NCBI GenBank assembly: GCA_937879955.1
Contig: CALFMK010000001.1
Coordinates: 5,461-69,460, forward strand
Reading direction: 5' to 3'
DNA from: an uncultured bacterium
Lineage (GTDB): Bacteria > Patescibacteriota > Minisyncoccia > Phycocordibacterales > Phycocordibacteraceae
DNA length: 64,000 bases
The position numbers were made by a program, and so were the translations under genes. This document shows, piece by piece, positions 1 to 59,558 of the stretch; position 1 is the first letter of the stretch, and each line of letters starts with the position of its first letter. The notes beneath the pieces are model-generated. The model ran no database searches and was not told the DNA's origin. It saw only the letters and a list, made by a program, of their open reading frames with translations.

Positions 1-377
1 TTCTTCTGGAACTGCAGGCTGTTGCGGGCCGGCCACAGCGCGAAGCGGGCGATGAGGAAGCCGAAGAGGACGTTGAGGAGCACGAGGCCGAGGAACGAGT
101 ACAGGTACGCCTCGTCCTTCACGGCGTCGATGGTGTCCGGCAGGCTGCTCGTGGTGGTCGCGTTCTCTGCGAGCGCCTGGGCTATCTGCGTCGTGATGGT
201 CTCCACGGTGCGCTCCTGGGCGTAGTGCACGCCCCACACGAACACCACGATCGAGATCAGGGCGAGCACGATCTGCAGCCCGACGACATGGATCGCCGTC
301 TTCACGAACAGGTTGTACCGGTACTTATCGATTAAGTCGGTAACCCACGCCGCGGACGGTTTCGAAGAGAGGGGCAT
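1..377 (-). CDS. sensor histidine kinase, N-terminal fragment (continues beyond window start)
   Basis: Minus-strand frame is open from the ATG at 377-375 to position 1. It is absent from the ORF track because no stop lies in the window. Translation MPLSSKPSAAWVTDLIDKYRYNLFVKTAIHVVGLQIVLALISIVVFVWG...LYSFLGLVLLNVLFGFLIARFALWPARNSL shows two hydrophobic helices flanking a short loop, as in OmpR-partner kinases. It lies directly downstream of the response regulator and overlaps its 3' end. Start codon uncertain. Confidence 0.5.
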   Translation of the reverse strand, partial: MPLSSKPSAAWVTDLIDKYRYNLFVKTAIHVVGLQIVLALISIVVFVWGVHYAQERTVETITTQIAQALAENATTTSSLPDTIDAVKDEAYLYSFLGLVLLNVLFGFLIARFALWPARNSLQFQK

Positions 378-999
378 CTGCATAGGTATCGAGCTTCTTG
401 CGAAGATTCTTCATGTGTACATCAAGCACGTTCGAGAAGCCAGGGAAGTCGAAGCTCCAGACATGGTCGAGGATGCTCTCGCGCGTGAGGGCCTCGTCCG
501 GGTGGCGCATGAAGTACTCGAGGAGCGAGTACTCCTTGAGCGTGAGGGAGAGCGGCTTGCCGCCCTTGGTCACGGTCCGCGCCCCGGAGTCGAGCTCGAT
601 GTCGCGGACGGAGAGCTTCGACGGGAGGCTCTGCTCAGGACGGCGGAGCACCGCGTTGATGCGGGCCACGAGCTCCTCGAACGAGAACGGCTTCGCGAGG
701 TAGTCGTCGGCGCCGGTGTTGAGGAGCTCCACCTTGTACTCGGTCTCGTCGCGGGCCGTGAGGATGATGATCGGGGTCTTCACGCCCTCCTTCCGAGCCT
801 CGCGCGTGATGGTGGCGCCGTCGACGCCCGGGAGCATGAGGTCGAGCAGGATGAGGTCGTACTCGTCCCGGTAGAGGAGGATGCGGGTCTTCGCCTTCTC
901 GCTCTCCGCGATCCAGTCCACGGCGAAGCCCTTCGACTCGAGGCCGCGCTTCAGGCCCTCGGCGAGCTTCGCTTCGTCTTCAACGATGAGTATGCGCAT
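325..999 (-). CDS. OmpR/PhoB-family response regulator
   Basis: Receiver motifs MRILIVEDE, LILLDLMLPGVDG, ILTARD and AKPF, followed by a winged-helix output domain (LTLKEYSLLEYFMRHPDEALTRESILDHVW...VDVHMKNLRKKL...TVRGVGYRL). Confidence 0.92.
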   Translation of the reverse strand: MRILIVEDEAKLAEGLKRGLESKGFAVDWIAESEKAKTRILLYRDEYDLILLDLMLPGVDGATITREARKEGVKTPIIILTARDETEYKVELLNTGADDYLAKPFSFEELVARINAVLRRPEQSLPSKLSVRDIELDSGARTVTKGGKPLSLTLKEYSLLEYFMRHPDEALTRESILDHVWSFDFPGFSNVLDVHMKNLRKKLDTYADAPLFETVRGVGYRLNR

Positions 1000-1070: not shown

Positions 1071-1080
1071 TGGTTCAGAA

Positions 1081-1108
1081 AGGAAAAAGACCCGCAGGAG
1101 CGCGGGTC
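1081..1108 (-). terminator. intrinsic terminator (minus strand)
   Basis: Minus strand reads GACCCGCG-CUCCU-GCGGGUC followed by UUUUUCCU. It ends a minus-strand transcript coming from the ORF-free region at 1.1-1.6 kb. Confidence 0.6.
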
Positions 1109-1599
1109 CTCTGAAGGATCAGGAGACGCAGGACGGGATCGCTGGGCGCGACCCCGTCCTGCCGATATTCCTGCGCGGAACGATGCGCACAGGAATCTAT
1201 CGAGGGTGCGAGCCACCTGCCAGAGGCAGACAGCGGTGCCGCTTCCGCTCGGGTGAGGGCACCATACCACATAAAGAAATCCGCCTCACTGATGAGGCGG
1301 ACTGGACAAGGAAAGAGCGGGGAAGCCGGGCGCAGAACGGAAGCTGCTCGCTAGAGGGAGGAACGAGCTTTCTCCATTCTGCGCCGGGCCCGCGCTTGTC
1401 GTCGCTGGCGGGGCTCATTTCGCCGGCGACTGGCGCGTCGTGCCGGAAGATACGAGGGGTACTCCCGGCACGTGCATCCTCCCATAGGCAGGGCGAGCGT
1501 CAAGCGATGCGGGAAGTCGTATCCATTCGCGCACCGCACCACGATTCCCGGGTCCGTCTATGGGTCAAAAAACGGCCTCACGAAAGGCTTTTTCGAAGT

Positions 1600-1780
1600 T
1601 GTGTCTTGCCTCTGTCCGGGAACGTTTCGTGCTGGTTTATGCACAAGGAAGATTGGGTGAAGAGCCCGTATCATACGTAGGTCAACGCAGCCGAATGCAG
1701 TCGGAAGGATGCGGCGGGACGCGCTACGGCGCCCCCGAACGCGGTCCGAAGTGGAGCGAAAACCCTGCCAGCGTCCGAAG
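1600..1780 (+). promoter_or_regulatory. candidate cobalamin (B12) riboswitch in the nrdA leader
   Basis: AAGGAAGAUUGGGUGAAGAGCCCG (1645-) resembles the conserved GGGAAnnnGGUGnnAAnCCnG core. CAGUCGGAAGG resembles the GGGAAGG element. AGCGAAAACCCUGCC (1755-1769) resembles the B12 box AGCCnGGAGACCUGCC. It sits directly upstream of nrdA. Matching was done by eye against the remembered consensus only. Confidence 0.45.
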
Positions 1781-1830
1781 CCAAGGCTGACTTATAAATG
1801 TGCCGTGTAACCTACGGGATTACCTACCAT

Positions 1831-4719
1831 ATGAAGCAGGTCAAGAAGCGGAACGGGAGCATCGTCGACTTCGAGGCGACGAAGATTACTGACGCATTGC
1901 GAAAATCCTTCGCGTATTGCGAGGTCGCGATAGACGAGGCGGGGCTCGAGACGCTCACCAAGGGCGTCCTTGAGGACCTCTCGGCGAAGTTCGGCGACGA
2001 GGCGACTCCCTCCGTGGAGCATGTACAGGACCTGGTAGAGCTCGCGCTCATGGAGGCGGGCTACCTCACCGTGGCGAAGCACTACATCGTGTACCGCTAC
2101 GAGCATGCGAAGGTCCGCGAGGAGAAGAAGCAGGAGACCCTCGAGAAGATCGAGGAGGAGGGTCTCCTCATCACCACCGCGTCCGGGAAGCAGGAGCGCT
2201 TCAACGAGACCAAGCTCCGCCAGACCCTCGAGCATCTCGCGAAGGAGGACCAGATGGCGGGCATCGACATCGACCACATCCTCTCCCAGCTCAAGTACGA
2301 GCTCTATGAGGGTATGACCACGGCCGAGGTGGGGAAGGCGCTCATCATGGTGGTCCGCTCGATGATCGAGCGCGACCCGGCGTACTCGCGCCTGGCCGCC
2401 CGTCTCCTCCTGAACCGTCTCTACGCCGAGGTCTTCGGCACGGAGTTCGACAGCAAGAACCCGTACGATTCCGTCGAGCGCGTGTTCGAGGCGAACATGA
2501 AGCGGCTTGTGGCGAACGGCGACCTCGACGAGCGCATGGCCGAGTTCGACCTGAAGAAGCTCGCGCGCGCGATGAAGCTCGAGAACGACCAGCTCTTCGA
2601 GTACATGGGCCTCGAGATCATGATCAGCCGCTACTGCATGGAGGACCCGAAGGCCAAGCGCACCCTCGAGATCCCGCAGATGCTCTGGATGCGCGTGGCC
2701 ATGGGCCTCGCCATCGCCGAGAAGCCGGAGGACCGCGAGCGCGTGGCGCTCGAGTTCTACGACGCGCTCTCGAACTTCTACTACACCCCGGGCGGCCGCA
2801 CCCTCTTCCAGGCAGGCGCGAAGAAGGCGCAGCTTTCCAACTGCTTCCTCAACACCGTGCCTGATTCCCTCGAGGGCATCTTCAAGTCCATCTCGGACAA
2901 CGCCCAGTACCTGAAGTGGTCGGGAGGCACCGGCACCGACTGGACCCCGGTCCGCGCGACGGGTTCCTTCATCAAGGGTACCGGCGTGCCTTCCCAGGGC
3001 ATCGTGCCGTTCCTCAAGATCGCGAACGACGTGAACCTCGCCATCAACCGCTCCGGCAAGCGCCGCGGCGCCGGCTGCGTGTACCTCGAGACCTGGCACC
3101 ACGACATCGAGGACTTCCTCGAGCTCCGCAAGAACACCGGAGACGAGCGCCGCCGCACGCACGACATCAACACCGCGAACTGGATCCCGGACCTGTTCAT
3201 GAAGCGGGTGCGCGACAACGGCATGTGGACCCTCTTCAGCCCGAGCGAGGTGCCTGACCTCCACGACCTCTACGGCGCAGCCTTCGAGAAGCGCTACATG
3301 GAGTACGAGGCTATGGCGGACGCGGGCGGCATGGAGCTCTGGAAGCGCATCCCGGCGACCGACCTCTGGAAGAAGATGATCGGCATGCTCTTCGAGACGG
3401 GTCATCCATGGATCACCTGGAAGGACCCGATCAACGTCCGCTCCCCGCAGGATCACGCGGGCGTCGTGCACAACTCGAACCTCTGCACCGAGATCACCCT
3501 CAATACGAACGAGGACGAGACCGCCGTCTGTACGATCGGCTCCCTCAACTTCGCGAAGTTCGTCGTTACCGGCGAGGACGGCGTGGCTCGCTTCGACCAC
3601 GAGCTCGTGGCGCGCTACACGCGCATCGCGATCCGCATGCTCGACAACGTCATCGACCTCAACTTCTATCCGACGGAGGACGCACGTCGCGGCAACACCC
3701 GCCACCGTCCGGTGGGCCTCGGCGTCCGCGGCTACCATGACGCGCTCTACGGCCTGAACATCCAGTTCGACTCGCCTGAGGCGCTCAACTTCGCCGACGA
3801 GAGCATGGAGGTCGTCGCGTACTACGCGATCCTCGGCTCGTCCGAGCTCGCGAAGGAGCGCGGCACCTACTCGACCTACAAGGGATCGAAGTGGGACCGG
3901 GACATCTTCCCGCAGGACACCCTCGACCTCCTCGAGAAGGAGCGCGGCGAGTCCGTGAAGCTGAAGCGCGGCGGCAAGCTCGACTGGACCCCGGTCCGCG
4001 AGCACGTGAAGAAGTACGGCATGCGCAACAGCAACACCATGGCGATCGCGCCGACCGCGTCGACCGCGAACCTCGTCGGCTGCATCCCGTGCGTCGAGCC
4101 GATCTACAAGAACATCTACGTGAAGTCGAACAAGGAAGGGGAGTTCGTCGTCGTGAACAAGTACCTCGTCGAGGACCTCAAGAAGGCGAACCTCTGGAGC
4201 GCCGGCATGCTCAACCGCATCAAGTACGCGGACGGCAGCATCCAGGGCATCATCGAGATTCCGCGCGCGCTCCGCGAGAAGTACAAGGAGGTCTTCGAGA
4301 TCGACGGCAAGTGGCTCGTCGAGGCGGCGGCTCGTCGCGGCAAGTGGATCGACCAGTCCCAATCCCTGAACATCTTCTATAACGGAACCTCCGGAAAGGA
4401 CCTCTCCGACATCTACTTCCTCGCGTGGGAGATGGGCCTCAAGACGACCTATTACCTCCGCACCCTCGGCGCGTCCCAGGTTGAGAAGGCGACCGTCTCG
4501 ACCGTTGAGTACGGCTCGACCCACATCCGCGGAGGATCGACCCTCGCTGAGGTCGCTGCTGCGACCGTCGTAGAGGAGGTGGCCGTCGCGGCCCCGGTTA
4601 TCGAGGAGGTGCCCGCGCTCAGCGTCCCGAGCGGATTCTCGGCTGCGGAATGGCAGGCCAAGATGGCTCGCGTCGCCGCAGGCGAGGAGGCGGGCGTGTG
4701 CGAATCGTGCGAAAGCTAA
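1831..4719 (+). CDS. nrdA: ribonucleotide-diphosphate reductase large subunit, class Ia
   Basis: N-terminal ATP-cone (KRNGSIVDFEATKITDAL), a class I catalytic core (NLCTEI region) and a C-terminal Cys pair (CESCES). Followed by nrdB. Start moved from track position 1798 to the ATG at 1831, where the ATP-cone begins. Confidence 0.93.
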   Translation: MKQVKKRNGSIVDFEATKITDALRKSFAYCEVAIDEAGLETLTKGVLEDLSAKFGDEATPSVEHVQDLVELALMEAGYLTVAKHYIVYRYEHAKVREEKKQETLEKIEEEGLLITTASGKQERFNETKLRQTLEHLAKEDQMAGIDIDHILSQLKYELYEGMTTAEVGKALIMVVRSMIERDPAYSRLAARLLLNRLYAEVFGTEFDSKNPYDSVERVFEANMKRLVANGDLDERMAEFDLKKLARAMKLENDQLFEYMGLEIMISRYCMEDPKAKRTLEIPQMLWMRVAMGLAIAEKPEDRERVALEFYDALSNFYYTPGGRTLFQAGAKKAQLSNCFLNTVPDSLEGIFKSISDNAQYLKWSGGTGTDWTPVRATGSFIKGTGVPSQGIVPFLKIANDVNLAINRSGKRRGAGCVYLETWHHDIEDFLELRKNTGDERRRTHDINTANWIPDLFMKRVRDNGMWTLFSPSEVPDLHDLYGAAFEKRYMEYEAMADAGGMELWKRIPATDLWKKMIGMLFETGHPWITWKDPINVRSPQDHAGVVHNSNLCTEITLNTNEDETAVCTIGSLNFAKFVVTGEDGVARFDHELVARYTRIAIRMLDNVIDLNFYPTEDARRGNTRHRPVGLGVRGYHDALYGLNIQFDSPEALNFADESMEVVAYYAILGSSELAKERGTYSTYKGSKWDRDIFPQDTLDLLEKERGESVKLKRGGKLDWTPVREHVKKYGMRNSNTMAIAPTASTANLVGCIPCVEPIYKNIYVKSNKEGEFVVVNKYLVEDLKKANLWSAGMLNRIKYADGSIQGIIEIPRALREKYKEVFEIDGKWLVEAAARRGKWIDQSQSLNIFYNGTSGKDLSDIYFLAWEMGLKTTYYLRTLGASQVEKATVSTVEYGSTHIRGGSTLAEVAAATVVEEVAVAAPVIEEVPALSVPSGFSAAEWQAKMARVAAGEEAGVCESCES

Positions 4720-4767: not shown

Positions 4768-5802
4768 ATGCCCATCAACAAAGGTGCTGCTCCCGTGAAC
4801 ATTAACAACCGCAGGATCATCAACGGCGGAGACGCCGACGTGATGCAGCTCTACCCGATGAAGCACACGTTCGCGTGGGACGCGTACATGGCGGGTAACA
4901 GCAACCACTGGCTTCCGACGGAGATCAGCATGCAGCGCGACATCGAGCAGTGGAAGTCGACGACCGTGCTCTCGGACGACGAGCGCAGGGCGTTCGAGAC
5001 CGTGCTCGGATTCTTCACCACGGCCGATTCGATCGCCGCGAACAACATCGTGCTCGCCATCTACAAGCACATCACGAGCCCGGAGTGCCGCATGTACCTC
5101 CTGCGCCAGGGATACGAGGAGGCGATCCATACGCACGCGTACCAGTACATCGTGGAGTCGCTCGGCATGGACGAGTCGAAAATCTTCAACATGTACCGCG
5201 AGGTGGAGGCGATCTACAACAAGGACAACATGGTGCTGCGCCTCAACGAGGGCATCTTCTCGCCGGACTTCAAGACCGGCACGCTCGAGAACGACCAGCT
5301 CTTCGTGGAGAACCTCTGCGTCTTCTCGCTCATCATGGAAGGCATCTTCTTCTACAGCTCGTTCGCCGTCATGTTCGGCTTCCAGCGCCAGAACAAGCTC
5401 ACGGGCGCCGCGGAGCAGATCCAGTACATCATGCGCGACGAGTCCCAGCACCTTAACTTCGGCGTGAACCTGATTAACACGATCAAGGAGGAGCAGCCTG
5501 AGGTGTGGACCCCTGAGTTCCAGGAGCGCATCATCGGCATGGTGAAGCGCGCGGTGCAGCTCGAGTACGAGTTCGCTACCACGGTCTTCCCGAAGGGCAT
5601 CTTCGGCATGAACGCAGCAGGCTTCAAGCAGTACATCGAGCATATCGCCGACCGCCGTCTCGCGTCGGTAGGCCTTCCGGCGCAGTACAACGTCGAGAAC
5701 CCGTTCCCGTGGATGGGCGAGGCGGTGGACCTGAACAAGGAGAAGAATTTCTTCGAGACCCGCGTGACCGAGTACAAGACGGGCGGGCAGTTGAGCTGGT
5801 AA
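4768..5802 (+). CDS. nrdB: ribonucleotide-diphosphate reductase small subunit, class Ia
   Basis: Di-iron and radical-site motifs FFTTADSI (Asp ligand), EEAIHTHAYQY (ExxH plus Tyr at +7) and MRDESQHLNF. Confidence 0.93.
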   Translation: MPINKGAAPVNINNRRIINGGDADVMQLYPMKHTFAWDAYMAGNSNHWLPTEISMQRDIEQWKSTTVLSDDERRAFETVLGFFTTADSIAANNIVLAIYKHITSPECRMYLLRQGYEEAIHTHAYQYIVESLGMDESKIFNMYREVEAIYNKDNMVLRLNEGIFSPDFKTGTLENDQLFVENLCVFSLIMEGIFFYSSFAVMFGFQRQNKLTGAAEQIQYIMRDESQHLNFGVNLINTIKEEQPEVWTPEFQERIIGMVKRAVQLEYEFATTVFPKGIFGMNAAGFKQYIEHIADRRLASVGLPAQYNVENPFPWMGEAVDLNKEKNFFETRVTEYKTGGQLSW

Positions 5803-5824
5803 TCCTTCTTCCCGTGTTCAAAAA

Positions 5825-5851
5825 AGCGCTCCTTTACGGGAGTGCTTTGTT
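5825..5851 (+). terminator. intrinsic terminator after nrdB
   Basis: AGCGCTCC-TTTAC-GGGAGTGCT hairpin followed by TTGTT. Confidence 0.55.
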
Positions 5852-5863
5852 ATACTAATTCCG

Positions 5864-8257
5864 ATGAAACACGTGGGAAGGCTTCTGGTACTGCTTTTTG
5901 GTGCTTTTATCTTTCCGGGGATGGTCTCTGCAGCCACCTACTACGTTGATGCGACTCTCGGTAATAATTCGAATAACGGCACTGCCGCTAGTACCTCGTG
6001 GCAGACGCTCGCCAAAGTAAACGGCACTACATTCTTGGCTGGCGATAATATCCTCTTTAAGAAGGGAGAGACGTTTACTGGTGTGCTCGTAGCAGGCCAG
6101 AGTGGCACTAATGGGAATCCAATCACGTACGGCTCATATGGGGAGGGTGCGCGCCCAATTATTAATGCCGCTGGAAATAATCATGGATTCGACATCCGGA
6201 CAGGTAAGTCTTATATCAATGTAGCTGGCCTCGAAGTTCGAAACGCGACCTTGAACCAGTTTCTTCTGTTCGCTAATAGTTCGAATATATCGCACGTGTC
6301 CATCCAGGACTCGATAGCTGTAGGGGGAACGAGCGGATTCAATTTACAGGGACCAGGAACGTTTCTAGACATAACAATAAGTAGCAGTACCGCAAGCGGG
6401 TACGCGGGAGGTTCTGCGGTTGGTGTTCGCCTTGGTTCAGGAACCACTTTTGATGGAATTACTCTCGATGGAGTATCGGCGGCTTCTGGAAGTGGGTATC
6501 AGGGCTTCAGTACTGGATCGGGAACCTATTCAAATATTTCGATACTGAACTCATCGTTCACTGGGCATCCATCAAACGGTATTGCGTTTCTGTCTGCAAC
6601 GACGACTAACGTGGTCATTAGGGATACTGTAGCGAGCTTGAATGGAGGAAGTGGGATTTATTTCTTTGGTGTGAAGAGTGGAGTTGAGATTGATAACGTA
6701 ACAGCAAACTCAAATACCCAAAACGGAATAGGATTTGAAGCTGGTGCCATGAATCACATATCAATCGAAGACTCCGAGTTCAACAATAATGGACTTAATG
6801 GAATCGCACTTCTCGGAAGCGGAACCGGAACGTCAACAATCGTTTCTCGGTCGATTGCGTCTGGTAATGATAATGACGGTTTTAATATCTCTGGAAACTG
6901 GCAGAATGTCGTATTCGAGGAAGCGATCGCAAGTGATAATGGTGTAGATGGTATTGGCTCGAACGGAGACGGCTTCAGCTTTCACAACTCGAGCACCGGT
7001 GTAATTAGGAATAGCCAGGCACATAATAATTGGAAGTCAGCCGTAACAAACGTGAATACATCGAGCACGACGGTATATAACAACCTCTTTTCGCATGACA
7101 CCAACGGAACGAATGCCCTCATCACATTCCTAGACAGCGGAAGCCATGCTGCTTACAACAATGTGCTCTATAGCCCTGCACAGGTGGGGTATGGATTGGT
7201 CGCGAATGGTACAACGACACTCATAGCGAGGAATAATATTATTCAAGGTTTTCAGTACGGCGTATCGAAGGGGACGAATGCCTTCTTGGTAGAAGATTAC
7301 AATGACGTTTATGGAGCCAGTACGGCCTCCTACATTGGGCTTACTGGAGGTGTACATTCTATCTCTGTGAATCCAAAGTTTGTCGACGCTGAGGATGATG
7401 ATTTCCGACTACTTCAGTCCTCTCTTGCTATAAATGCAGGTACTACGACGCCCTATGTAACCGATTACCTCGGAAATCCACGCGTCGGCATTCCGGATAT
7501 GGGTGCATATGAGTATCAGGGAATACCTGATATAACAGCACCTTCTATCTACATAATTGCACCAGTGGATCCGGCTACGATATCTGGAACTGTAATTATT
7601 ACCGCATCAGCGACGGATGCTATCGGCGTAGAAGAAGTCGAATTTTTTCTAGATGGAGTATCGCTCGGGGATGATGCATCTGATCCTTATTCATTTTCAT
7701 GGAACTCATCTGCAGTTCCCGATGGCGTATACTCACTTCTCGCAGTTGCACATGATGCTGAAGGGAATTATGCCACCTCCTCTCCTGTCTCCGTCACGGT
7801 CTCGAATGTAATTCAGGAAGCGAGCCATCGCTCTGGTAAGTCCGGTCAGAGTGTCGTACGCACTATCTCTCCGCTCGCAGATTCTGTATTAAATGAAGGA
7901 GAAGCAAAGATATCATCAATAAATCGGCTCATACTCGATAATCGCGCACTTTTTATGCTTGCGCAGGAAAAGGGAATAGTAGTTCCTGAATTCATACTCA
8001 ATATGCTCGATCTCCCTTCGGGCTCGACCATTTCGATATTCTTTAATCGTCCTCTTGCGCTTGGAGCAACTGGCCCAGATGTCACTGCACTCCAGCAGAT
8101 TCTTAAGGATAAGGGCTTCTATGTTTATCAGGAGATAACCGGCTACTACGGACAAGCCACACTACAAGCTGTTGCTGACTACCAGAAGTCACTTGGGCTC
8201 GAATCTCTCGGGTATGTAGGTCCAGCAACAAGGGAAGCCTTGAATGCTGGGATTTGA
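5864..8257 (+). CDS. secreted parallel beta-helix repeat protein with Ig-like module and C-terminal peptidoglycan-binding domain
   Basis: Signal peptide MKHVGRLLVLLFGAFIFPGMVSA. About 400 aa of G/N/S/T-rich repeats (..NGI.F..) typical of right-handed beta-helices. Ig-like segment VEEVEFFLDGVSLGDDASDPYSFSWNSSAVPDGVYSLLAVAHDAEGN. PG_binding_1-like tail GATGPDVTALQQILKDKGFY..GYYGQATLQAVADYQKSLGL. Lies in the low-GC island. Confidence 0.8.
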   Translation: MKHVGRLLVLLFGAFIFPGMVSAATYYVDATLGNNSNNGTAASTSWQTLAKVNGTTFLAGDNILFKKGETFTGVLVAGQSGTNGNPITYGSYGEGARPIINAAGNNHGFDIRTGKSYINVAGLEVRNATLNQFLLFANSSNISHVSIQDSIAVGGTSGFNLQGPGTFLDITISSSTASGYAGGSAVGVRLGSGTTFDGITLDGVSAASGSGYQGFSTGSGTYSNISILNSSFTGHPSNGIAFLSATTTNVVIRDTVASLNGGSGIYFFGVKSGVEIDNVTANSNTQNGIGFEAGAMNHISIEDSEFNNNGLNGIALLGSGTGTSTIVSRSIASGNDNDGFNISGNWQNVVFEEAIASDNGVDGIGSNGDGFSFHNSSTGVIRNSQAHNNWKSAVTNVNTSSTTVYNNLFSHDTNGTNALITFLDSGSHAAYNNVLYSPAQVGYGLVANGTTTLIARNNIIQGFQYGVSKGTNAFLVEDYNDVYGASTASYIGLTGGVHSISVNPKFVDAEDDDFRLLQSSLAINAGTTTPYVTDYLGNPRVGIPDMGAYEYQGIPDITAPSIYIIAPVDPATISGTVIITASATDAIGVEEVEFFLDGVSLGDDASDPYSFSWNSSAVPDGVYSLLAVAHDAEGNYATSSPVSVTVSNVIQEASHRSGKSGQSVVRTISPLADSVLNEGEAKISSINRLILDNRALFMLAQEKGIVVPEFILNMLDLPSGSTISIFFNRPLALGATGPDVTALQQILKDKGFYVYQEITGYYGQATLQAVADYQKSLGLESLGYVGPATREALNAGI

Positions 8258-8284
8258 ATTCTTCTAGAGGACGGCGATAATAAA

Positions 8285-8500
8285 CTATATATAACGTTTA
8301 ATTATCTCAACACTGCCCAAGGTCAGTATGTCTCTACCGACCACTCCGTTCTTACGGGTACTAATTACTTTAATAGCTTCTCGTTCGAGAAAGTACATTA
8401 CCGCAGTGTTCAGAATTAAATTCCTATCCCTCTCCTCTGTAACTAGTAAATCAATCGTTTCAAGGACATCCTCTGGAATATCAAGATTAATTTTAGACAC
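8285..8500 (-). CDS. ribbon-helix-helix (CopG-like) small DNA-binding protein
   Basis: KINLDIPEDVLETIDLLVTEERDRNLILNTAVMYFLERE follows the RHH strand-helix-helix pattern. GTG start, no obvious SD, 23 nt after the upstream ORF. Low GC. Confidence 0.55.
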   Translation of the reverse strand: MSKINLDIPEDVLETIDLLVTEERDRNLILNTAVMYFLEREAIKVISTRKNGVVGRDILTLGSVEIIKRYI

Positions 8501-12897: not shown

Positions 12898-14979
12898 CTA
12901 TGCGCGCTCGATAGTAGCGAGAATCTCCTCGATCTCAGCGAGCCCCGCCGGCTTCGTGAGATGGTGGTCGAACCCGGCCTTCCGGGCCTTCTGTATGTCG
13001 GATTCCTGGCCGTAGCCGGTGAGTGCGACGAGCGTCGCGGCGAACCCATCAGCGCGGAGCGCCGTCGCGACCTCGTAGCCCTCCATGTCCGGCAGGCCGA
13101 TGTCGAGCAGGATCACGTCAGGACGGAACGCGGGCGCGCGGGCGATAGCCTCCTCGCCGGTATATGCGGTTTCGGTACGGTTCCCGCGGAGCGTGAGGAG
13201 CTTCGCGAGCGCGTCGGCCGCGGCGCGGTTGTCGTCCACGACGAGGATGCGGAACCCGTCACGCGCCTTTGGCGCTGCTACGGCCCGTGCCCGCACCCCG
13301 ACGGCTCCCTCCTGCGGGAGCGGGATGCGGACGGTGAACCGGCTCCCGTGTCCGGGCCCGTCGCTCTCGGCCTCGATCGTGCCGTCGTGCATCTCCACCA
13401 GGTTCTTGGTAAGCGAGAGGCCGATGCCGAGACCTGCGTGCATCTTGCCGGGCTGCTCGATCTGGAAGAACGGTTCGAAGACGTGCGCAAGGAGCGCGGC
13501 GTCCATGCCGATGCCGGTGTCCGTCACCGTGACGACGGCCTCGGTCCCGTCCGTGCGTGCCACGAGCTCGATACGGCCTCCGGGCTCGGTGTACTTCGCC
13601 GCGTTGTTGAGGAGGTTCACGAACACCTGCTCGAGACGCACGGGATCGGCCTCGAGGCGGATCGCCTCGTCCGGCATGTCGATCGAGAGCTCGTGCTTGA
13701 GGGACGCCATGAGCGGCGCCACGGTACGCTGGCTCCTTGCGAGCACGGTCTGGAGGTCGATGTGCTCCTTCTGGAGGGAGAGCTTCTCGCGGGTGATGCG
13801 CGAGATGTCGAGCAGGTCGTCGAGGAGATGCCGCATGGTCTTCAGGTGGTCGGTCATGCCTTCGGCGAGCTCGCTCGAGCGAGCGGCATCCGGCCGCTCG
13901 AGCTTCATGATCTCGAGCGAGGACATGAGCGGGGCGAGCGGGTTGCGCAGCTCGTGCGCGAGGGTGGCGATGAAGCGGCTCTTCGCCTCGTCCTCACGGC
14001 GGATCCGCTCCACGGCGTCCTCGAGCCTGCGCACGTTGTCGCGCAGGACGTTCGCGGTGTCCTTGCGCTCCTCCGCGATGGAGACGAGCACGAGGAATAT
14101 GAGGGAGAGCACGATCACGAATATCTCGGTCTGCAGGAGGTCGTATCCGAGCGTCCCTGTACCGGACGCGAGGCTGAGGAACGCGGTGCCGCCGAGCGCG
14201 AGCGCGGCGTTCAGGAAGAGCGCGAGCGTCATGAAGCGCGGGCCGATGCGCAGCGCGATCCAGAGGAACGGGATGAGGATAAGGTATACGAGCGGCACCT
14301 GCGCGATCTCGCGGTATGGGGTCCAGTACAGGAGGAGGCCGGTCCCGACGACGGCCGCTATCGCGACCCAGGCCTCGACGAGCTCGCCCTTCGTGCGCTG
14401 GAACCTGAAGCGCGGCAGCCACTTGATGAGGAGCGGCGTCACGACGAGCATGGAGAGGATGTGCCCGATCCACCACGGGATGAAGGTACCCATGAGGCCG
14501 CGGGGCATGGCGCGCTCGGCCAGGGTGAAGGTGAGGGTTCCGAGCGCCGGGATGAGGATGGTGACGAAGAGCGCGACGAACACGAACATGAGGGTGTCGG
14601 GAGCCTTCGAGAAGGTGTTGCGGTATCCGAGCTTCCGGAGGAGCCAGGTGCCCACGCTTGCCTGTATGGCGTTCGCCGCCGCAAGCCCGAGCGCCACGAA
14701 CAGCACGCTCCCGTTCAGGAGCTGGTGCGCGAGAGCTGCCAGGAATACCGCAGGCCAGAGCGCGATGCCGCCGAGGAGGAGTCCGCCGAGCGCGATGCCG
14801 GATGCCGGCCAGATGAGGGCCGGGGCGGTCGGGACGGAGGAATAGATATGCGAGAAGACCTGGGCGCAGAACAGGTACGCGCAGAACAGCAGCGCCATGT
14901 AGAGGAGCGACCGTCCGGAATAGGGGAAGCGAGGCATAGACGGGTGGATGGCGTTCTCCCTAGGATACATTCTTTTCAT
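12898..14979 (-). CDS. hybrid sensor histidine kinase (multi-TM MASE1-like sensor, HisKA, HATPase, C-terminal receiver)
   Basis: About 300 aa of TM helices. H-box LAHELRNPLAPL. ATP-lid boxes NLLNNAAKYT, DTGIGM and GLGIGL. Receiver ILVVDDN..ILLDIGLPDMEG..LTKP. Start could be an internal Met (14970 or 14937). Confidence 0.85.
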   Translation of the reverse strand: MKRMYPRENAIHPSMPRFPYSGRSLLYMALLFCAYLFCAQVFSHIYSSVPTAPALIWPASGIALGGLLLGGIALWPAVFLAALAHQLLNGSVLFVALGLAAANAIQASVGTWLLRKLGYRNTFSKAPDTLMFVFVALFVTILIPALGTLTFTLAERAMPRGLMGTFIPWWIGHILSMLVVTPLLIKWLPRFRFQRTKGELVEAWVAIAAVVGTGLLLYWTPYREIAQVPLVYLILIPFLWIALRIGPRFMTLALFLNAALALGGTAFLSLASGTGTLGYDLLQTEIFVIVLSLIFLVLVSIAEERKDTANVLRDNVRRLEDAVERIRREDEAKSRFIATLAHELRNPLAPLMSSLEIMKLERPDAARSSELAEGMTDHLKTMRHLLDDLLDISRITREKLSLQKEHIDLQTVLARSQRTVAPLMASLKHELSIDMPDEAIRLEADPVRLEQVFVNLLNNAAKYTEPGGRIELVARTDGTEAVVTVTDTGIGMDAALLAHVFEPFFQIEQPGKMHAGLGIGLSLTKNLVEMHDGTIEAESDGPGHGSRFTVRIPLPQEGAVGVRARAVAAPKARDGFRILVVDDNRAAADALAKLLTLRGNRTETAYTGEEAIARAPAFRPDVILLDIGLPDMEGYEVATALRADGFAATLVALTGYGQESDIQKARKAGFDHHLTKPAGLAEIEEILATIERA

Positions 14980-14996
14980 GAAGCCTACATGAAAGG
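14977..14996. promoter_or_regulatory. second copy of the CATGAAG direct-repeat box (CATGAAGCCTACATGAAAGG)
   Basis: 17/20 identity and the same orientation as 1051-1070. Lies at the 5' end of the hybrid kinase gene, in the divergent region shared with the SET gene. Confidence 0.4.
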
Positions 14997-15044
14997 CCCG
15001 CGCCTTGCTACGGAGCCGTGCTTCGCCGTACTATGGGCTCCACT

Positions 15045-15455
15045 ATGACAGCAAAAGGAAAGTACGTACCCGGCGAGTGGACGCTCGCCGTGAAGCGGTC
15101 GAGCGCCGGCCTCGGCCTGTTCGCGGGCGAGCGCATCCCGAAGGGCGCCTGCGTCATCGAGTATGTCGGACGCACGGTATCGAAGGAGGAGAGCGAGACG
15201 AGCAAGAGCAAGTACCTCTTCGAGATCTCGAAGAACAAGACCATCGACGGGAAGCCGAAGATAAACAAGGCGGGGTACATCAACCATGCCTGCAATCCGA
15301 ACTGCGAGACGGAGATAGCGAAAGGCCGCATCTTCGTGATGGCGATCAAGGACATAAAGCCCGGAGACGAACTCACCTACGACTACGGGAAGGAGTACTG
15401 CCTCGAGCACTGCGTCCCGTGCCGCTGCAGCGCGAAGAAGCACCTGTACGGATAG
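15045..15455 (+). CDS. SET-domain protein (putative lysine methyltransferase)
   Basis: GLGLFAGERIPKGACVIEYVG, NHACNPNC, ELTYDY and a Cys-rich tail CLEHCVPCRC. Start set to the ATG at 15045, 10 nt after TACTAT. The track start at 15018 is in the same frame. Confidence 0.8.
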   Translation: MTAKGKYVPGEWTLAVKRSSAGLGLFAGERIPKGACVIEYVGRTVSKEESETSKSKYLFEISKNKTIDGKPKINKAGYINHACNPNCETEIAKGRIFVMAIKDIKPGDELTYDYGKEYCLEHCVPCRCSAKKHLYG

Positions 15456-39771: not shown

Positions 39772-40137
39772 ATGCTTTCAGAAGAAGTGCGCGTACGTCT
39801 GCGCGAGATGGGAGTCTTCCCGACTGACGAGGACATGCATCGGCGAAAGGACGCCAACCCCTTCTTCGAGATCCGGCCTGACAGCGAATCTCCGACCGAG
39901 ACAGAACTGAATCGTCTGACCGCTCTGACCGAGGCCTATCGGGAATGCTTCGGCGACGCCGCGACGATCAGGACGTTCTGGGGCGTGATGGCGAATACCA
40001 TTACGCTTTGGAAGTGTAAGGGTACCTGGCGCATGCGTCGCATGACGTGGACCGACAAGGGAGAGTGGACACCAGCACCGAATGGCGTCAGTATCGAAGA
40101 ACTGTTCCTAAAGGTTGCCCGCGGCACGACCGCCTGA
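39772..40137 (+). CDS. hypothetical protein
   Basis: TTGACT-N16-TATAGT promoter and AAGGAG SD upstream. A long hairpin plus T-run follows at 40130-40179. Confidence 0.55.
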   Translation: MLSEEVRVRLREMGVFPTDEDMHRRKDANPFFEIRPDSESPTETELNRLTALTEAYRECFGDAATIRTFWGVMANTITLWKCKGTWRMRRMTWTDKGEWTPAPNGVSIEELFLKVARGTTA

Positions 40138-40179
40138 CCAGAGAGACCGCACGGCTCTCGGGTCGGGCGGTTTTCTTTT
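40130..40179 (+). terminator. intrinsic terminator after 39772-40137
   Basis: CCGCCTGACCAGAGAG...CTCTCGGGTCGGGCGG imperfect long hairpin followed by TTTTCTTTT. Confidence 0.6.
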
Positions 40180-40189
40180 ATGGAAACGA

Positions 40190-40217
40190 GCAAAGCCGCC
40201 CTTTCGGACGGCTTTGC
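40190..40217. terminator. hairpin just downstream of tRNA-Glu
   Basis: GCAAAGCCG-(10 nt)-CGGCTTTGC. Confidence 0.45.
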
Positions 40218-40221
40218 TGCT

Positions 40222-40296
40222 TGGTGACCTCACGGGGAATCGAACCCCGATTTGATCCGTGAGAGGGATCTGTCCTAGCCGTTAGACGATGAGGCC
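40222..40296 (-). tRNA. tRNA-Glu (anticodon CTC), CCA encoded
   Basis: Cloverleaf folded by hand. Acceptor GGCCTCA/TGAGGTC, D-arm GTCT-AACGGCTA-GGAC, anticodon stem GATCC/GGATC with loop CTCTCAC, T-arm CGGGG-TTCGATT-CCCCG, then A plus CCA. Confidence 0.93.
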
Positions 40297-55043: not shown

Positions 55044-55589
55044 ATGAATACGCTTGTCGAAGAGCGGCCCGTCGCGGCCGCCGAGCCCATCCAGGTCCTC
55101 GAGCGCGTCGGTCCGGTCGTCACGCTCCCTGAGGTCCAGAACTCTCACATGTCCGGCCTCTTCTCCGTGAGCGGCGTCGAGCCCGTCCCGTTCTCTGAGA
55201 TCTGCAAGGCGTTCAAGAGGTTGATGCCGAGCCAGTCGAGCGCCCCGTCGATAACGGTCAGCGCGCGGCGCCTCACCGGCGGGTGGACCGACGAGGAGGT
55301 CATCGCGGCGCTCAGGAGCGCAGGCTCCTCGCCGTATGTCGCGCTGATTCACGTGTACGAGTACCTGAAGCATGCCGAGCGCCGGCCGGCCGATCTCGAG
55401 GTCGACCGCCGTCCCCACTGGCATATCTTCTACTACAGGACGGACCATCCTGACCCGAAGAAACGGGAAGACTGGGTGATCCGCGCGCTCTGGCAGGAAG
55501 GCGGCTGGTCCATGGCCGCGGGCCGTACGGACGCGGAGAGGCCCTGGGACGAGGACGAGGAGATACTCGTCATCGCTCCTGACTCCTGA
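55044..55589 (+). CDS. hypothetical protein
   Basis: Start at the ATG at 55044 with SD GAGGAGG. 181 aa. No motif recognised. Confidence 0.55.
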   Translation: MNTLVEERPVAAAEPIQVLERVGPVVTLPEVQNSHMSGLFSVSGVEPVPFSEICKAFKRLMPSQSSAPSITVSARRLTGGWTDEEVIAALRSAGSSPYVALIHVYEYLKHAERRPADLEVDRRPHWHIFYYRTDHPDPKKREDWVIRALWQEGGWSMAAGRTDAERPWDEDEEILVIAPDS

Positions 55590-55645
55590 ACGAAAGAAGG
55601 CCCGCATCTCTCCGGAGAGATGCGGGCCTTTTCCTTATTCTTTAG

Positions 55646-56563
55646 CTACAGCCACTTCTTCAGCTTGAAGAACGCGAGGAGCGCGAGGCCCGTGAGCGTC
55701 ATGATGCCGAGGATGATCCAGAAGCCGTTCTGTCCGTGCACGACAGGCATGTACTCCGCGTTCATGCCGAATACGGACGCGATGAGGGTGAGCGGCACCC
55801 CGACGAACGCCATCACCGTGAGGGTCTTGGTCACCTGGTTCTGGCTCGCCGAGAGGAGGGAGTCGTTGGTGATGCGGAGCTCCTGCGCCACGGCGCGATA
55901 CGAGGACACGAGCCCTGCGGCGTGGGTGCGCCTCGCCTCGATATGCGCGGCATGCTCCTCGAAGGCGGTGCCGAAGAAGACCGGCGTTGAGAGCGCCGCG
56001 AGGAAGTCCGCGAGCGGCTCCTTGTGACGCGAGAGGGAGGTCTCGAACCGCAGGAGGATGCGGCCGGTCTCGGAGATCGGACGGACCGTCTCCTGTTCCT
56101 TGCCGGAGAAGATGTCGCGCTCGATGCGCTCGAGCCGGTATCCGGCCTGCTCGATGTCCTCGCTGATGGAGGCGTAGAGGCGGCTCATGACGCGCTCGAG
56201 CAGCTCGCCGGTGCGCAGCAGGCCGCCGCGCAGCTCGAGCATCTCCTCGGCCTCGAGCACCTTATGCAGGTTATGGAGCGACTCGATGCTCTCGTACCTG
56301 GCGGTTATGAGGAAGTGCTTGCCGACGATGAAGTCGATCTCCTGGGAGCGGGTGCCGTCCTCGGAGCCCGCGATCGGGAAGTGCAGGATGAGATAGGTGT
56401 AGCCCGGGAAGGAGATGGAGAGCGGGTAGGCGGTCGGCGTCGAGATCTCCTGGTGGATGCGCTCGTCGATGTCGAACTCCCGCATCACCTCGCTCACTTC
56501 CTCGTCGGTCGGGCACTCAAGGTCGACCCAGACGGTCTTGCCGCGCGTATGCCTGGTTATCAT
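55646..56563 (-). CDS. corA: CorA-family magnesium/cobalt transporter
   Basis: C-terminal two TM helices with the GMN motif (ASVFGMNAEYMP). Confidence 0.88.
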   Translation of the reverse strand: MITRHTRGKTVWVDLECPTDEEVSEVMREFDIDERIHQEISTPTAYPLSISFPGYTYLILHFPIAGSEDGTRSQEIDFIVGKHFLITARYESIESLHNLHKVLEAEEMLELRGGLLRTGELLERVMSRLYASISEDIEQAGYRLERIERDIFSGKEQETVRPISETGRILLRFETSLSRHKEPLADFLAALSTPVFFGTAFEEHAAHIEARRTHAAGLVSSYRAVAQELRITNDSLLSASQNQVTKTLTVMAFVGVPLTLIASVFGMNAEYMPVVHGQNGFWIILGIMTLTGLALLAFFKLKKWL

Positions 56564-58052: not shown

Positions 58053-58412
58053 ATGCTCCGTTCGCTTCAAGACCTGGAAACCGGGATCATCATCCCCGAT
58101 ACGGTCGCGTACCACGTCCGCGCGTTCGACATCGTCGGCCGCTGGACGGGCCGCGACATCGACGGCGCGATGCACGCCCGGTCCCTGATTCGGATCACGG
58201 ATCCGGACATCATCGCGCTGATCCGCGACGACGACCTGCTCGATCGCAGCGGCATGCCGAACCTGATCCCGCAGGACGATATCCTGGCCCTGAGCCTGGT
58301 CTACTCGCGCAACGACCGCGGCATCACGACCGATCGCGCGAGCATGACCTCGCGGATCCCGTGGACGGGCGGCCGCCTGTTCGTGCTCGCCGCCGGCGCC
58401 TGTCCGAACTGA
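58053..58412 (+). CDS. hypothetical protein
   Basis: TTGACG-N16-GTATAA promoter-like boxes and SD GGGAGGAA. 119 aa. Confidence 0.5.
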   Translation: MLRSLQDLETGIIIPDTVAYHVRAFDIVGRWTGRDIDGAMHARSLIRITDPDIIALIRDDDLLDRSGMPNLIPQDDILALSLVYSRNDRGITTDRASMTSRIPWTGGRLFVLAAGACPN

Positions 58413-58508
58413 CGGCGTCCTGACCCGCATACAAACCCCGGCTACCAAGGTAGCCGGGGTTTTCTCTGTCGTTGCGCGGCCCTATCTTTGCCGGTAGGAT
58501 GGTCCTAT

Positions 58509-58934
58509 ATGAAAGTCGTACTACTCAAAGACGTGAAGAATACGGGCCGTGCGGGAGCGGTCATCGAGTGCTCTGACGGGCACGCGCAGAACTTCCTCAT
58601 ACCGCGCGGCATGGCCGCGCTCGCGACGCCCGCGAACCTCAAGCAGGCCGAGCTCCGCCTCAAGCAGGAAGGCGAGCGCAAGGCGCTCGACGTGAAGCTC
58701 ATCCAGGACCGCCTCGCCGCGCTCGCGGAGGAGCGCATCGTCATCCTGAAGAAGACGAACGAGAAGGGTCACCTCTACGACGCGGTCGACGCGGCGGATA
58801 TCGCGAAGGCGACGCAGCTTCCGGTAGAGGCCATCAAGCTCGAGAAGCCGTTCAAGGAGGTCGGCACGTTCGACGTCCCGGTAGCGCTCGGAGAGAGTTT
58901 CGGGAAGCTCTCCATCACGGTCGAGGCCGAGTAA
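58509..58934 (+). CDS. rplI: 50S ribosomal protein L9
   Basis: MKVVLLKDVKNTGRAGAVIECSDGHAQNFLIPRGMA. Start at the ATG at 58509, 9 nt after TAGGAT. Confidence 0.92.
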   Translation: MKVVLLKDVKNTGRAGAVIECSDGHAQNFLIPRGMAALATPANLKQAELRLKQEGERKALDVKLIQDRLAALAEERIVILKKTNEKGHLYDAVDAADIAKATQLPVEAIKLEKPFKEVGTFDVPVALGESFGKLSITVEAE

Positions 58935-58996
58935 GAGAAGGGAGATAAAAGATAACGGCGTCCCATGCGGGACGCCGTTCTTTTGTGCCTGCGCGG

Positions 58997-59419
58997 CTAC
59001 CGCCTGCGGCCCATCCTTCCGGCGACGAAGCCGAGAAGCAGGGAGAGCAGGATGACGAACGCGCACCAGCCAACCCACCCGAGATTGTAGTGCCGCTTGA
59101 AGTAGTTCGTGTCGCCGACCCGCAGCTTCAGCTGGTCGACCTCGGCGCTCAGTGCGCTGATCCGGGCCTTCTGGTCCCTGATCATCGCATCCTTCGCGTC
59201 CATGGCCGACTTCGCCTTGTCGGCTTTCGCGCAGATGCTCTGCGCGCTTTCGCCGGGCCTGACGAAGTACTCGGCGTTCTCGAACAGGATCGCCGTGTTC
59301 GCGACGAGTCCCGTCGGCGAGAGCCCCTGCGCGGCGAACCGTTCCTCGCAGGTCTTCGCATTCGCGGCGGATGCCGCGAATGCCATGATCGCTACTGCGA
59401 CCACCATCCTGTACTTCAT
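58997..59419 (-). CDS. secreted coiled-coil protein with C-terminal membrane anchor
   Basis: Signal peptide MKYRMVVAVAIMAFAASAANA, coiled coil (ARISALSAEVDQLKLR), C-terminal TM WVGWCAFVILLSLLLGFVAG. SD GGGAGGGG and a TTGAAC-N16-CATAAT promoter. Confidence 0.55.
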   Translation of the reverse strand: MKYRMVVAVAIMAFAASAANAKTCEERFAAQGLSPTGLVANTAILFENAEYFVRPGESAQSICAKADKAKSAMDAKDAMIRDQKARISALSAEVDQLKLRVGDTNYFKRHYNLGWVGWCAFVILLSLLLGFVAGRMGRRR

Positions 59420-59518
59420 GGAACCCCTCCCTAGAGAAAACAATGATCCGGTGCAGCCGGATGTCTGGGAGCATTATGCATTAAAATTCAATATGTTCAA
59501 TGCTTGGCATAGAAAGAG

Positions 59519-59544
59519 AAAAACCGCCCAGAGAGGCGGTTTTT
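59519..59544. terminator. bidirectional terminator downstream of rpmA
   Basis: AAAAACCGCC-CAGAGA-GGCGGTTTTT. Confidence 0.7.
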
Positions 59545-59558
59545 CGGAGGAGGATGGC

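Follow-up and report, generated by a model that had tools for sequence, protein, structure and literature searches.

In the 64,000-nucleotide stretch of DNA analysed here (the window), the divergent intergenic region between a response regulator (RR) gene and nrdA contains a hairpin-dense block at positions 1081–1598. We lean, slightly beyond even chances, towards a reading in which the RR-proximal part (1079–1269) is an independent small non-coding RNA (sRNA) gene and the remainder (1270–1598) is a lineage-specific structured spacer. The extended −10 element TGGTATGGT (1269→1261) would start transcription near A1254, yielding an RNA of about 176 nt with a 5′-terminal stem-loop, internal hairpins, an AUAUCG junction, a 15-bp hairpin (1162→1128) and an unpaired C/U-rich spacer. 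Transcription would then stop at an intrinsic terminator (1112→1085) followed by U5. Homologous units with the same layout and almost no common sequence occupy the same spot in sister species. Since the ends and the architecture persist through the turnover of the internal sequence, the RNA probably acts via its shape or via transcription and termination; a protein-binding, decoy or insulating role is favoured, and a long conserved antisense seed is unlikely.

Comparative evidence for the predicted sRNA

The RR(−)/nrdA(+) synteny is kept in more than 40 related loci, denoted here by L numbers. In these relatives, two conserved flanks, of about 75 nt on the RR side and about 230 nt on the nrdA side, enclose a middle that ranges from about 60 nt (L002, L084, L085, L183 and L185) to more than 500 nt, and within which BLAST gave no alignment between species. 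The closest relative, L161, is a Logan assembly of a near-identical strain, in which the RR differs by one residue (variant P0134) and the whole block is present. The parts of the predicted sRNA, termed unit B, and the bounds of the variable block are as follows.

1079–1254, minus strand: predicted sRNA (unit B), 176 nt between its predicted ends
1261–1269, minus strand: extended −10 element TGGTATGGT, with the predicted transcription start at A1254
1220–1254, minus strand: 5′-terminal stem-loop, starting at nucleotide 2 of the predicted transcript
1167–1196, minus strand: hairpin (inverted repeat) with an 11-bp stem, in which a G·U pair is A-U in L161 (substitution at 1174)
1163–1168, minus strand: AWAUCG junction or single-stranded motif (AUAUCG here), adjoining the long hairpin on its 5′ side
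1128–1162, minus strand: long hairpin, 15 bp with a 5-nt loop, which is the helix that covaries in the conserved 3′ module
1085–1112, minus strand: intrinsic terminator T1, stem GGACCCGC/GCGGGTC(T), 6-nt loop, U5 at 1088→1084
1049–1067: RR box and promoter region, direct repeat TTCATGAA-N3-TTCATGAA, bounding the variable block on the RR side
1599–1830, plus strand: nrdA 5′ leader, bounding the variable block on the nrdA side

From its 5′ end, unit B thus runs through the ACCCGAG of the terminal stem-loop, the internal hairpins, AUAUCG, the long hairpin and the C/U-rich spacer to the terminator. Although BLAST finds nothing, the RR-proximal ~100 nt have a common layout in the window and L161, L001 and L162, L005, L006, L007 and L083. 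Read in the RR sense, it comprises AWATCG, a long hairpin whose sequence is wholly different between lineages, a 16–30-nt spacer that is often C/U-rich, and a terminator with a CCCGC/GCGGG core and a U-run, which ends 10–25 nt before the RR box. The ‘ATC’ of the AWATCG motif is invariant in two alignments. The core and the U-run of T1 are kept in all 10 aligned homologues, and its stem is free of substitutions in L161. In every lineage the terminator U-runs lie on the RR-sense strand, and the terminator helix contains six G·U pairs on that strand and none on the other. Only the RR-proximal ~190 nt (1079–1269) have a counterpart in the sister species, where the units measure 190–350 nt.

R1, a covariance model of eight sequences (the window, L161, L001, L162, L005, L006, L007 and L083), recovers the held-out L170 just upstream of the RR box (28 bits, E = 5e-5), and the held-out L181, L182 and L184 at the same position (23–24 bits, E = 3e-5). 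Matches elsewhere reach at most 28 bits, L087 (27.9 bits) and L008 (22.5 bits) both lying several kb from the RR locus, and the other matches inside the window score at most 18 bits. The long hairpin covaries among these lineages. In the R1-based alignment, 11 of the 18 pairs change on both sides, and in helix 1 (1128–1162) 8 of 10 do so. Over the 18-pair structure 83.9% of the cells pair, compared with 35–44% when the partners are slid by 1–3 columns; the covariation score is 0.40, as against 0.07–0.13 in the slid controls, and none of 500 shuffles reaches the observed values.

The putative promoter is conserved in position. The motif TGnTAnnnT lies 202–238 nt upstream of the RR box in the window, L161, L001, L162, L005, L170, L083 and L081, representing six independent lineages, and in each lineage it is found once on the RR-sense strand, at that position. 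A search of ten lineages gave seven occurrences on the RR-sense strand (2.35 expected) and none on the opposite strand (1.7 expected). The boxes are listed by lineage.

Window and L161: TGGTATGGT
L001 and L162: TGCTACATT
L005: TGCTATTTT
L170: TGGTATATT
L083: TGCTATATT
L081: TGATAAAGT

At the same position, L006 and L007 carry TAGAAT-like and GAGAAT-like near-matches. ACC(C)GAG is conserved 6 nt downstream of the −10 box and opens the 5′-terminal stem-loop; of the 11 full-length transcripts predicted (the partial L001 fold aside), 8 have a stem that begins at one of their first 2 nt. The predicted length is 176 nt in the window and 145–211 nt in the relatives. A candidate promoter of the unit's own, at a conserved distance and on the strand of the terminator, is thus present in six lineages. 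A scan of 900–1900 on both strands with the sigma-70 consensus returned no promoter, whether for nrdA, for the RR or for the unit; because even the nrdA and RR promoters were missed, the standard consensus is uninformative here.

The unit is polymorphic in presence. At the locus, the whole block is absent from L002, L084, L085, L183 and L185, where the middles measure 60–82 nt. The RR of L183 is identical to that of L181, L182 and L184 (P0122), yet L183 lacks the unit. The putative sRNA gene is therefore accessory, and this alone excludes RNase P RNA and transfer-messenger RNA (tmRNA). When the filled L181 is compared with the empty L183, a diverged block is seen whose limits are the 5′ part of the nrdA leader on one side and the RR box on the other, with no clean junction. 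Between L181, L182 and L184 on the one hand and L183 (and L185 and L085) on the other, the DNA is 97% identical on the nrdA side and 92% identical on the side of the RR and the histidine kinase (HK).

Excess structure, coding status and sequence drift

Folding of the stretch 1060–1620 gives z = −8.84 for the minus strand and z = −5.60 for the plus strand, and none of 100 shuffles is equally stable. When the whole 64 kb was scanned with a sliding 150-nt frame, 1051–1200 ranked first, with a minus-strand z of −9.5. The hairpin density that the preliminary description had ascribed to 1081–1598 is thus borne out, the fold lying far beyond shuffles on both strands. An inverted-repeat search also recovered all of the helices it had named, some of them longer than first described, and a terminator scan found three sites, all on the minus strand, as compared with 0.9 ± 1.0 in shuffles.

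1128–1142 with 1148–1162: inverted repeat, 15 nt, 93% complementary
1280–1288 with 1293–1301: inverted repeat, 9 bp, perfect, with a tetraloop
1325–1350 with 1364–1389: inverted repeat, 26 nt, 77% complementary, enclosing an inner hairpin
1439–1449 with 1462–1472: inverted repeat, 11 nt, 91% complementary
1112..1085, 1303..1278 and 1588..1575 (weak), minus strand: terminator-like sites from the terminator scan

The first site corresponds to the clean minus-strand intrinsic terminator previously placed at 1081–1108. A weaker, bidirectional hairpin had been proposed at 1567–1595; it is indeed weak, with merely 4–5 bp, but the site found there by the scan is on the minus strand only. Three L161 substitutions (1577, 1578 and 1581) strike it. 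Other over-structured 150-nt stretches of the window (z −6 to −8.6) lie at 40126–40275, 55501–55650 and 58200–59550, one of them overlapping a tRNA at 40225–40296. The cluster at 58.2–59.6 kb looks like a run of small open reading frames (ORFs) with a terminator-like hairpin after each, and therefore appears to be a different phenomenon from 1081–1598.

The block is non-coding. None of the six ORFs in the 1081–1598 region has a Pfam match, tblastx of the region against the relatives gave no similarity, and in L161 three 1-nt indels together with a 22-nt indel disrupt every long ORF, including one of 217 codons. This agrees with the previous judgement that the region has no credible ORF and that the 217-aa ORF is nonsense. 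A decayed gene is rejected by the same empty tblastx and Pfam searches.

Divergence from L161 differs along the locus. One of 232 nt differs in the nrdA leader (0.4%), while third codon positions differ by 6.9% in nrdA and by 2.7% in the RR. In the predicted sRNA (1079–1254) there are three substitutions in 176 nt, a 1-nt deletion in the U-tail and the 22-nt indel, whereas 1270–1598 differs by about 6%, roughly the synonymous rate. The 22-nt insertion of L161 at ~1242 (L161 ~3737–3758) is itself a hairpin, TTCGCTC-ATC-GAGCGAA, situated within the region of the 5′ stem-loop and flanked by a direct repeat GAGCG(G)AA. The distal part consists of the following two features.

1304–1598, minus strand, transcribed strand uncertain: unit A hairpin cluster, with nested 1325–1389, 1403–1432 and 1439–1472, a looser 1484–1561 and the weak 1575–1588
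1278–1303, minus strand: intrinsic terminator T2, 9-bp perfect stem, tetraloop, UUUCUUUAU tail

The L161 substitutions spare the stems of T1 and T2 and the hairpins 1403–1432 and 1439–1472, and they cluster in the loosely paired 1494–1561. Two of them, 1346G>A and 1368C>T, compensate each other. T2 closes unit A directly upstream of the putative sRNA promoter, into which its U-tail runs.

Whether such substitutions preserve the fold was expressed as the fraction of random mutants that are as stable, in minimum free energy, as the observed substitutions. For the whole block in the window and L161, this fraction was 0.03 on the plus strand and 0.09 on the minus strand in one run, and 0.005 and 0.12 in another; for 1270–1598 alone it was 0.03–0.04 on either strand. 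In four independent close pairs (window/L161, L001/L162, L003/L004 and L173/L171) the fractions were 0.005–0.12, except for the RR-sense strand of L001/L162 (0.77). Energy is better preserved under the observed substitutions than in random mutants, and therefore fold stability has been maintained during sequence drift. These tests do not single out a strand. In the L010 group, the sequences upstream of the RR in L171 and L173 differ by clusters of 5–7 substitutions within 12–20 nt, which rebuild or destroy one helix arm beside ~175 nt of perfect identity. Such hairpin-shaped variation between close strains suggests template-switching or recombination instead of point mutation.

The distal part, 1270–1598, has a counterpart in L161 only. 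In lineages with short middles (L005 and L007), the candidate sRNA promoter abuts the nrdA upstream anchor, while the window has about 330 nt more between the two. The layout of unit A loosely resembles that of unit B, with an ACCCGGG start, a long hairpin, a C/U-rich spacer and a terminator at the end. In L161 a T>C change at 1561 alters the candidate −10 element of unit A, CATAGA, and therefore no promoter is claimed for this unit. On the favoured reading, 1270–1598 would be a lineage-specific structured spacer between the nrdA and sRNA promoters, closed by its own terminator T2. It may be a second sRNA unit, perhaps a decaying one, or simply a set of insulating hairpins, and it would be evolving approximately neutrally with hairpin-sized indels while its overall folding energy is kept.

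Weighing the readings

Several observations weigh against the sRNA gene. The transcript, its strand and its ends, like its transcription and any function, are all inferred from the DNA. In L181–184, L003/L004 and L006/L007 the promoter motif is absent or altered, and in L010 it is found at −333. The alignment that yields the covariation was fitted to the model and holds only about seven independent lineages. A full-length MAFFT/RNAalifold alignment of ten predicted sRNAs aligns the terminator only and gives no global consensus, so that the comparative support concerns one internal helix only. The pair types of the long hairpin (three G·U versus five A·C) leave the strand unsettled, the nrdA-sense strand retains energy in the mutation tests at least as well as the RR-sense strand does, and L161 folds better on the plus strand (−278 versus −265 kcal/mol). 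With 3 changes in 176 nt, the divergence is not significantly low relative to the local synonymous rate of the RR (2.7%), and the sRNA part on its own (four substitutions, 1079–1269) gives no retention signal (0.81 RR-sense, 0.18 nrdA-sense). No conserved unpaired seed is visible among the homologues, and therefore no target can be proposed. Each of the rival readings, for its part, fails to explain the co-oriented promoter, the 5′ end, the covarying hairpin and the terminator together.

Possible, though doubtful, is a stack of terminators that insulates without any functional RNA, keeping divergent or antisense transcription that originates at the strong nrdA promoter region away from the autoregulated RR/HK promoter; short transcripts, if any, would be by-products. 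No feature is kept more widely than a terminator immediately upstream of the RR box, which persists in loci that otherwise differ (L003/L004, L010, L081 and L187), and the three terminator-like sites stand in tandem on the minus strand; the internal sequence is nearly free to vary, and relatives dispense with the unit. However, one terminator would be enough for such a task, relatives with middles of 60–82 nt have none, and the reading accounts neither for the conserved position of the −10 box, nor for ACC(C)GAG at the 5′ end, nor for the covarying hairpin outside the terminator. The sRNA gene itself includes this role in part: T1 lies ~20 nt upstream of the RR box and would therefore also shield the autoregulated RR/HK promoter from upstream transcription.

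A bolder proposal, which we consider unlikely, is a new class of hypervariable structured RNA of the candidate phyla radiation (CPR), in which the ends are fixed (promoter, ACCCGAG 5′ stem, AWAUCG junction and terminator), the internal hairpins are rapidly rebuilt by hairpin-sized indels and clustered substitutions, fold stability is selected, and the extra 330-nt unit is a second, recently diverged copy. On the idea of a tandem duplication, units A and B align locally with a score of 18, as compared with 19 ± 2.7 in shuffles, and R1 scores unit A at 13.7 bits (E = 0.4). The pattern so proposed would be expected of an arms-race RNA (decoy, antitoxin or defence-related) or of a tuner of the neighbouring two-component system or of nrdA.

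The opposite strand could instead be the transcribed one, the block forming a variable structured 5′ extension of nrdA or a plus-strand RNA that starts near the RR box; we hold this to be quite unlikely. Energy is well retained in the nrdA sense (fractions of 0.005 for window/L161, 0.065 for L001/L162 and 0.055 for L003/L004), L161 is more stable in the plus orientation, and the three hairpin mismatches of L162 are all G·U on the nrdA-sense strand. This last point is weak, as a stem transition is a wobble on exactly one strand and three of three carries p about 0.25. Against this reading, hairpin U-runs are found on the minus strand only, T1 and T2 being preceded by A-runs on the plus strand, and TGnTAnnnT does not occur on the plus strand in any lineage. 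Relatives that lack the block keep the nrdA leader and its upstream anchor, and the nrdA promoter is therefore independent of the block.

Very unlikely, in our view, is the remnant of a mobile or repeated element, be it a cluster of repetitive extragenic palindromes (REPs) or bacterial interspersed mosaic elements (BIMEs), a miniature inverted-repeat transposable element (MITE), a palindrome-associated transposable element (PATE), or a fragment of an integrated element in a recombination hot spot. The content between the flanks is highly variable, its presence differs even among genomes with identical RR proteins, other lineages carry small ORFs at the same site, and both hairpin-sized indels and clustered substitutions occur. 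Against this, BLAST of 1071–1610 with the 64-kb window and ~0.75 Mb of the relatives' loci returned only chance 11–19-mers and thus no second copy, a distant-mode blastn against phage and plasmid collections gave no match, and no tandem repeat scored at least 30 with TRF in 900–1900. Neither terminal inverted repeats nor a target-site duplication is visible, the filled and empty loci show no clean junctions, and no transposase or integrase is adjacent. The REP-like cluster suggested in the preliminary description consequently finds no second copy to rest on, and REP, BIME and MITE assignments are rejected, there being no dispersed copies in the sequence searched, no flanking inverted repeats and no clean filled/empty junctions.

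A single ribozyme-like RNA of ~0.5 kb over 1081–1598 is highly improbable: the overall z of −8.8 across 560 nt and the stability kept despite 24 substitutions relative to L161 would suit it, but the distal 330 nt have no counterpart outside the same species, T2 and then a promoter-like box divide the region internally, the units of sister species measure only 190–350 nt, and the L161 substitutions break precisely the predicted long-range pairs.

The known families fare no better. Rfam at gathering score found nothing in the whole window or in the loci of 12 relatives, and a permissive Rfam scan of 950–1900 gave noise only, its sole match to the RNase P clan being an archaeal RNase P (9.5 bits over 36 nt, E = 3.2). 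ARAGORN found no tRNA or tmRNA in 900–1900, nor a tRNA-like domain or tag reading frame. RNase P RNA (RF00010/RF00011; P4 and the CR-I to CR-V core) is rejected for want of a gathering-score match, and because a block missing from close relatives is not an essential RNA such as this; tmRNA is rejected on the absence of Rfam and ARAGORN matches and of the block in close relatives. The size had first been taken to fit one or other of these RNAs, an idea that these results do not uphold. The alternative offered alongside it, an unclassified large structured RNA, survives in part: no Rfam family is assigned, so the region is unclassified, and it is structured, but it does not form one RNA of ~0.5 kb, the distal ~330 nt being found only in the window and L161. 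A TIGR- or CRISPR-like array, considered in view of PMC12045711, is rejected because TRF finds no tandem repeats in 900–1900. A riboswitch or attenuator leader of the RR operon is likewise rejected, as there is no conserved core beyond AWATCG and the terminator, and the RR box lies downstream of the terminator.

Known RNA systems, the locus and its meaning

Among described systems, the candidate sRNA most resembles the Rho-independently terminated trans-encoded sRNAs (e.g. the Rsa type of Firmicutes). It is a stand-alone intergenic unit of ~150–210 nt with its own sigma-70-like extended −10 element, a 5′ stem-loop, an unpaired C/U-rich stretch and a GC-rich terminator with a U-tail, and its distribution is clade-restricted and accessory. 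It differs from them in having no sequence or Rfam kinship, no conserved unpaired seed and a near-complete internal turnover, in its host group, the Patescibacteria/CPR, and in being predicted from sequence alone. With RNase P RNA and tmRNA the block shares only the overall size (~0.5 kb) and the density of helices, whereas its sequence is not conserved beyond the species. Like REP/BIME clusters it contains several imperfect GC-rich palindromes in one intergenic region, but its hairpins are mutually unrelated and lie between divergent promoters instead of at gene 3′ ends. As in attenuator and riboswitch leaders, a structured RNA with an intrinsic terminator would stand co-oriented directly upstream of an operon, here that of the RR and the HK; unlike them, it has no conserved ligand-binding core, the RR box and promoter are downstream of its terminator, and it is absent where the operon is kept.

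The RR gene (minus strand, 999..325) precedes the HK gene, and nrdA (plus strand) has its start at 1831. The intergenic region between them is 1000–1830, or 831 nt, which matches the very long divergent region of about 800 bp noted before. NrdA of the window is 80–89% identical to NrdA of the metagenome-assembled genomes L001–L018, and by its NrdA and RR homologues the window belongs to a high-GC lineage of Candidatus Paceibacterota (Patescibacteria/CPR). No protein on record is identical to the RR of the window.

The direct repeat TTCATGAA-N3-TTCATGAA is invariant in the alignment of all close relatives and matches twice in the window, as compared with 0.08 matches expected. We infer that it is the predicted binding box of an OmpR-type RR, in the promoter of the RR/HK operon. 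The second copy, at 14975–14993 with one mismatch, lies between a hybrid histidine kinase ORF (12898–14979, minus strand) and a 145-aa ORF (15018–15455, plus strand). On the other side, the nrdA leader is 70–85% identical across relatives and has no Rfam match (1599–1830). RNAalifold gives it nested helices (CAGCC/GGCTG, GCAG/CTGC and GCGC-UACG-GCGC) with a few compensatory changes, and an invariant GTAACCTACGGGATTACCT stands directly ahead of the nrdA start codon. The element has the look of an unclassified riboswitch or leader.

In more distant relatives the spacer carries small hydrophobic ORFs and no hairpins, as in L008, L009 and L011 (middle of ~375 nt), L093–L096 and L012. The ORF is in the nrdA sense in L008, L009 and L011, and in the RR sense in L093–L096, where it ends ~55 nt before the RR box. 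More generally, the RR/nrdA spacer is a hot spot for small accessory genes. Elsewhere in the window, the GC content falls from ~0.63 to ~0.45–0.50 at 5.8 kb, coinciding with a 797-aa ORF (5864–8257) that has a signal-peptide-like N-terminus; this drop, over 5800–8300, may reflect foreign DNA or a gene of different composition.

Patescibacteria/CPR have tiny genomes and are mostly uncultured. To our knowledge their regulatory RNAs are almost uncharted, and a literature search for non-coding RNAs of CPR/Patescibacteria found no description of an sRNA in the group. The candidate is thus an sRNA of the ordinary, terminator-bearing bacterial kind, newly proposed in a poorly explored phylum, and its predicted gene is located between a two-component system and ribonucleotide reductase. 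If there is no transcript, the block would be merely an unusually hairpin-rich, fast-evolving spacer of limited interest. As it stands, the locus presents a predicted intergenic RNA unit in which architecture and folding energy persist through near-neutral turnover of the sequence, and which is gained or lost even among genomes whose neighbouring proteins are identical. The comparative model of the putative sRNA gene, with its promoter, 5′ end, covarying helix and terminator, provides a concrete target for the mapping of metatranscriptomes.

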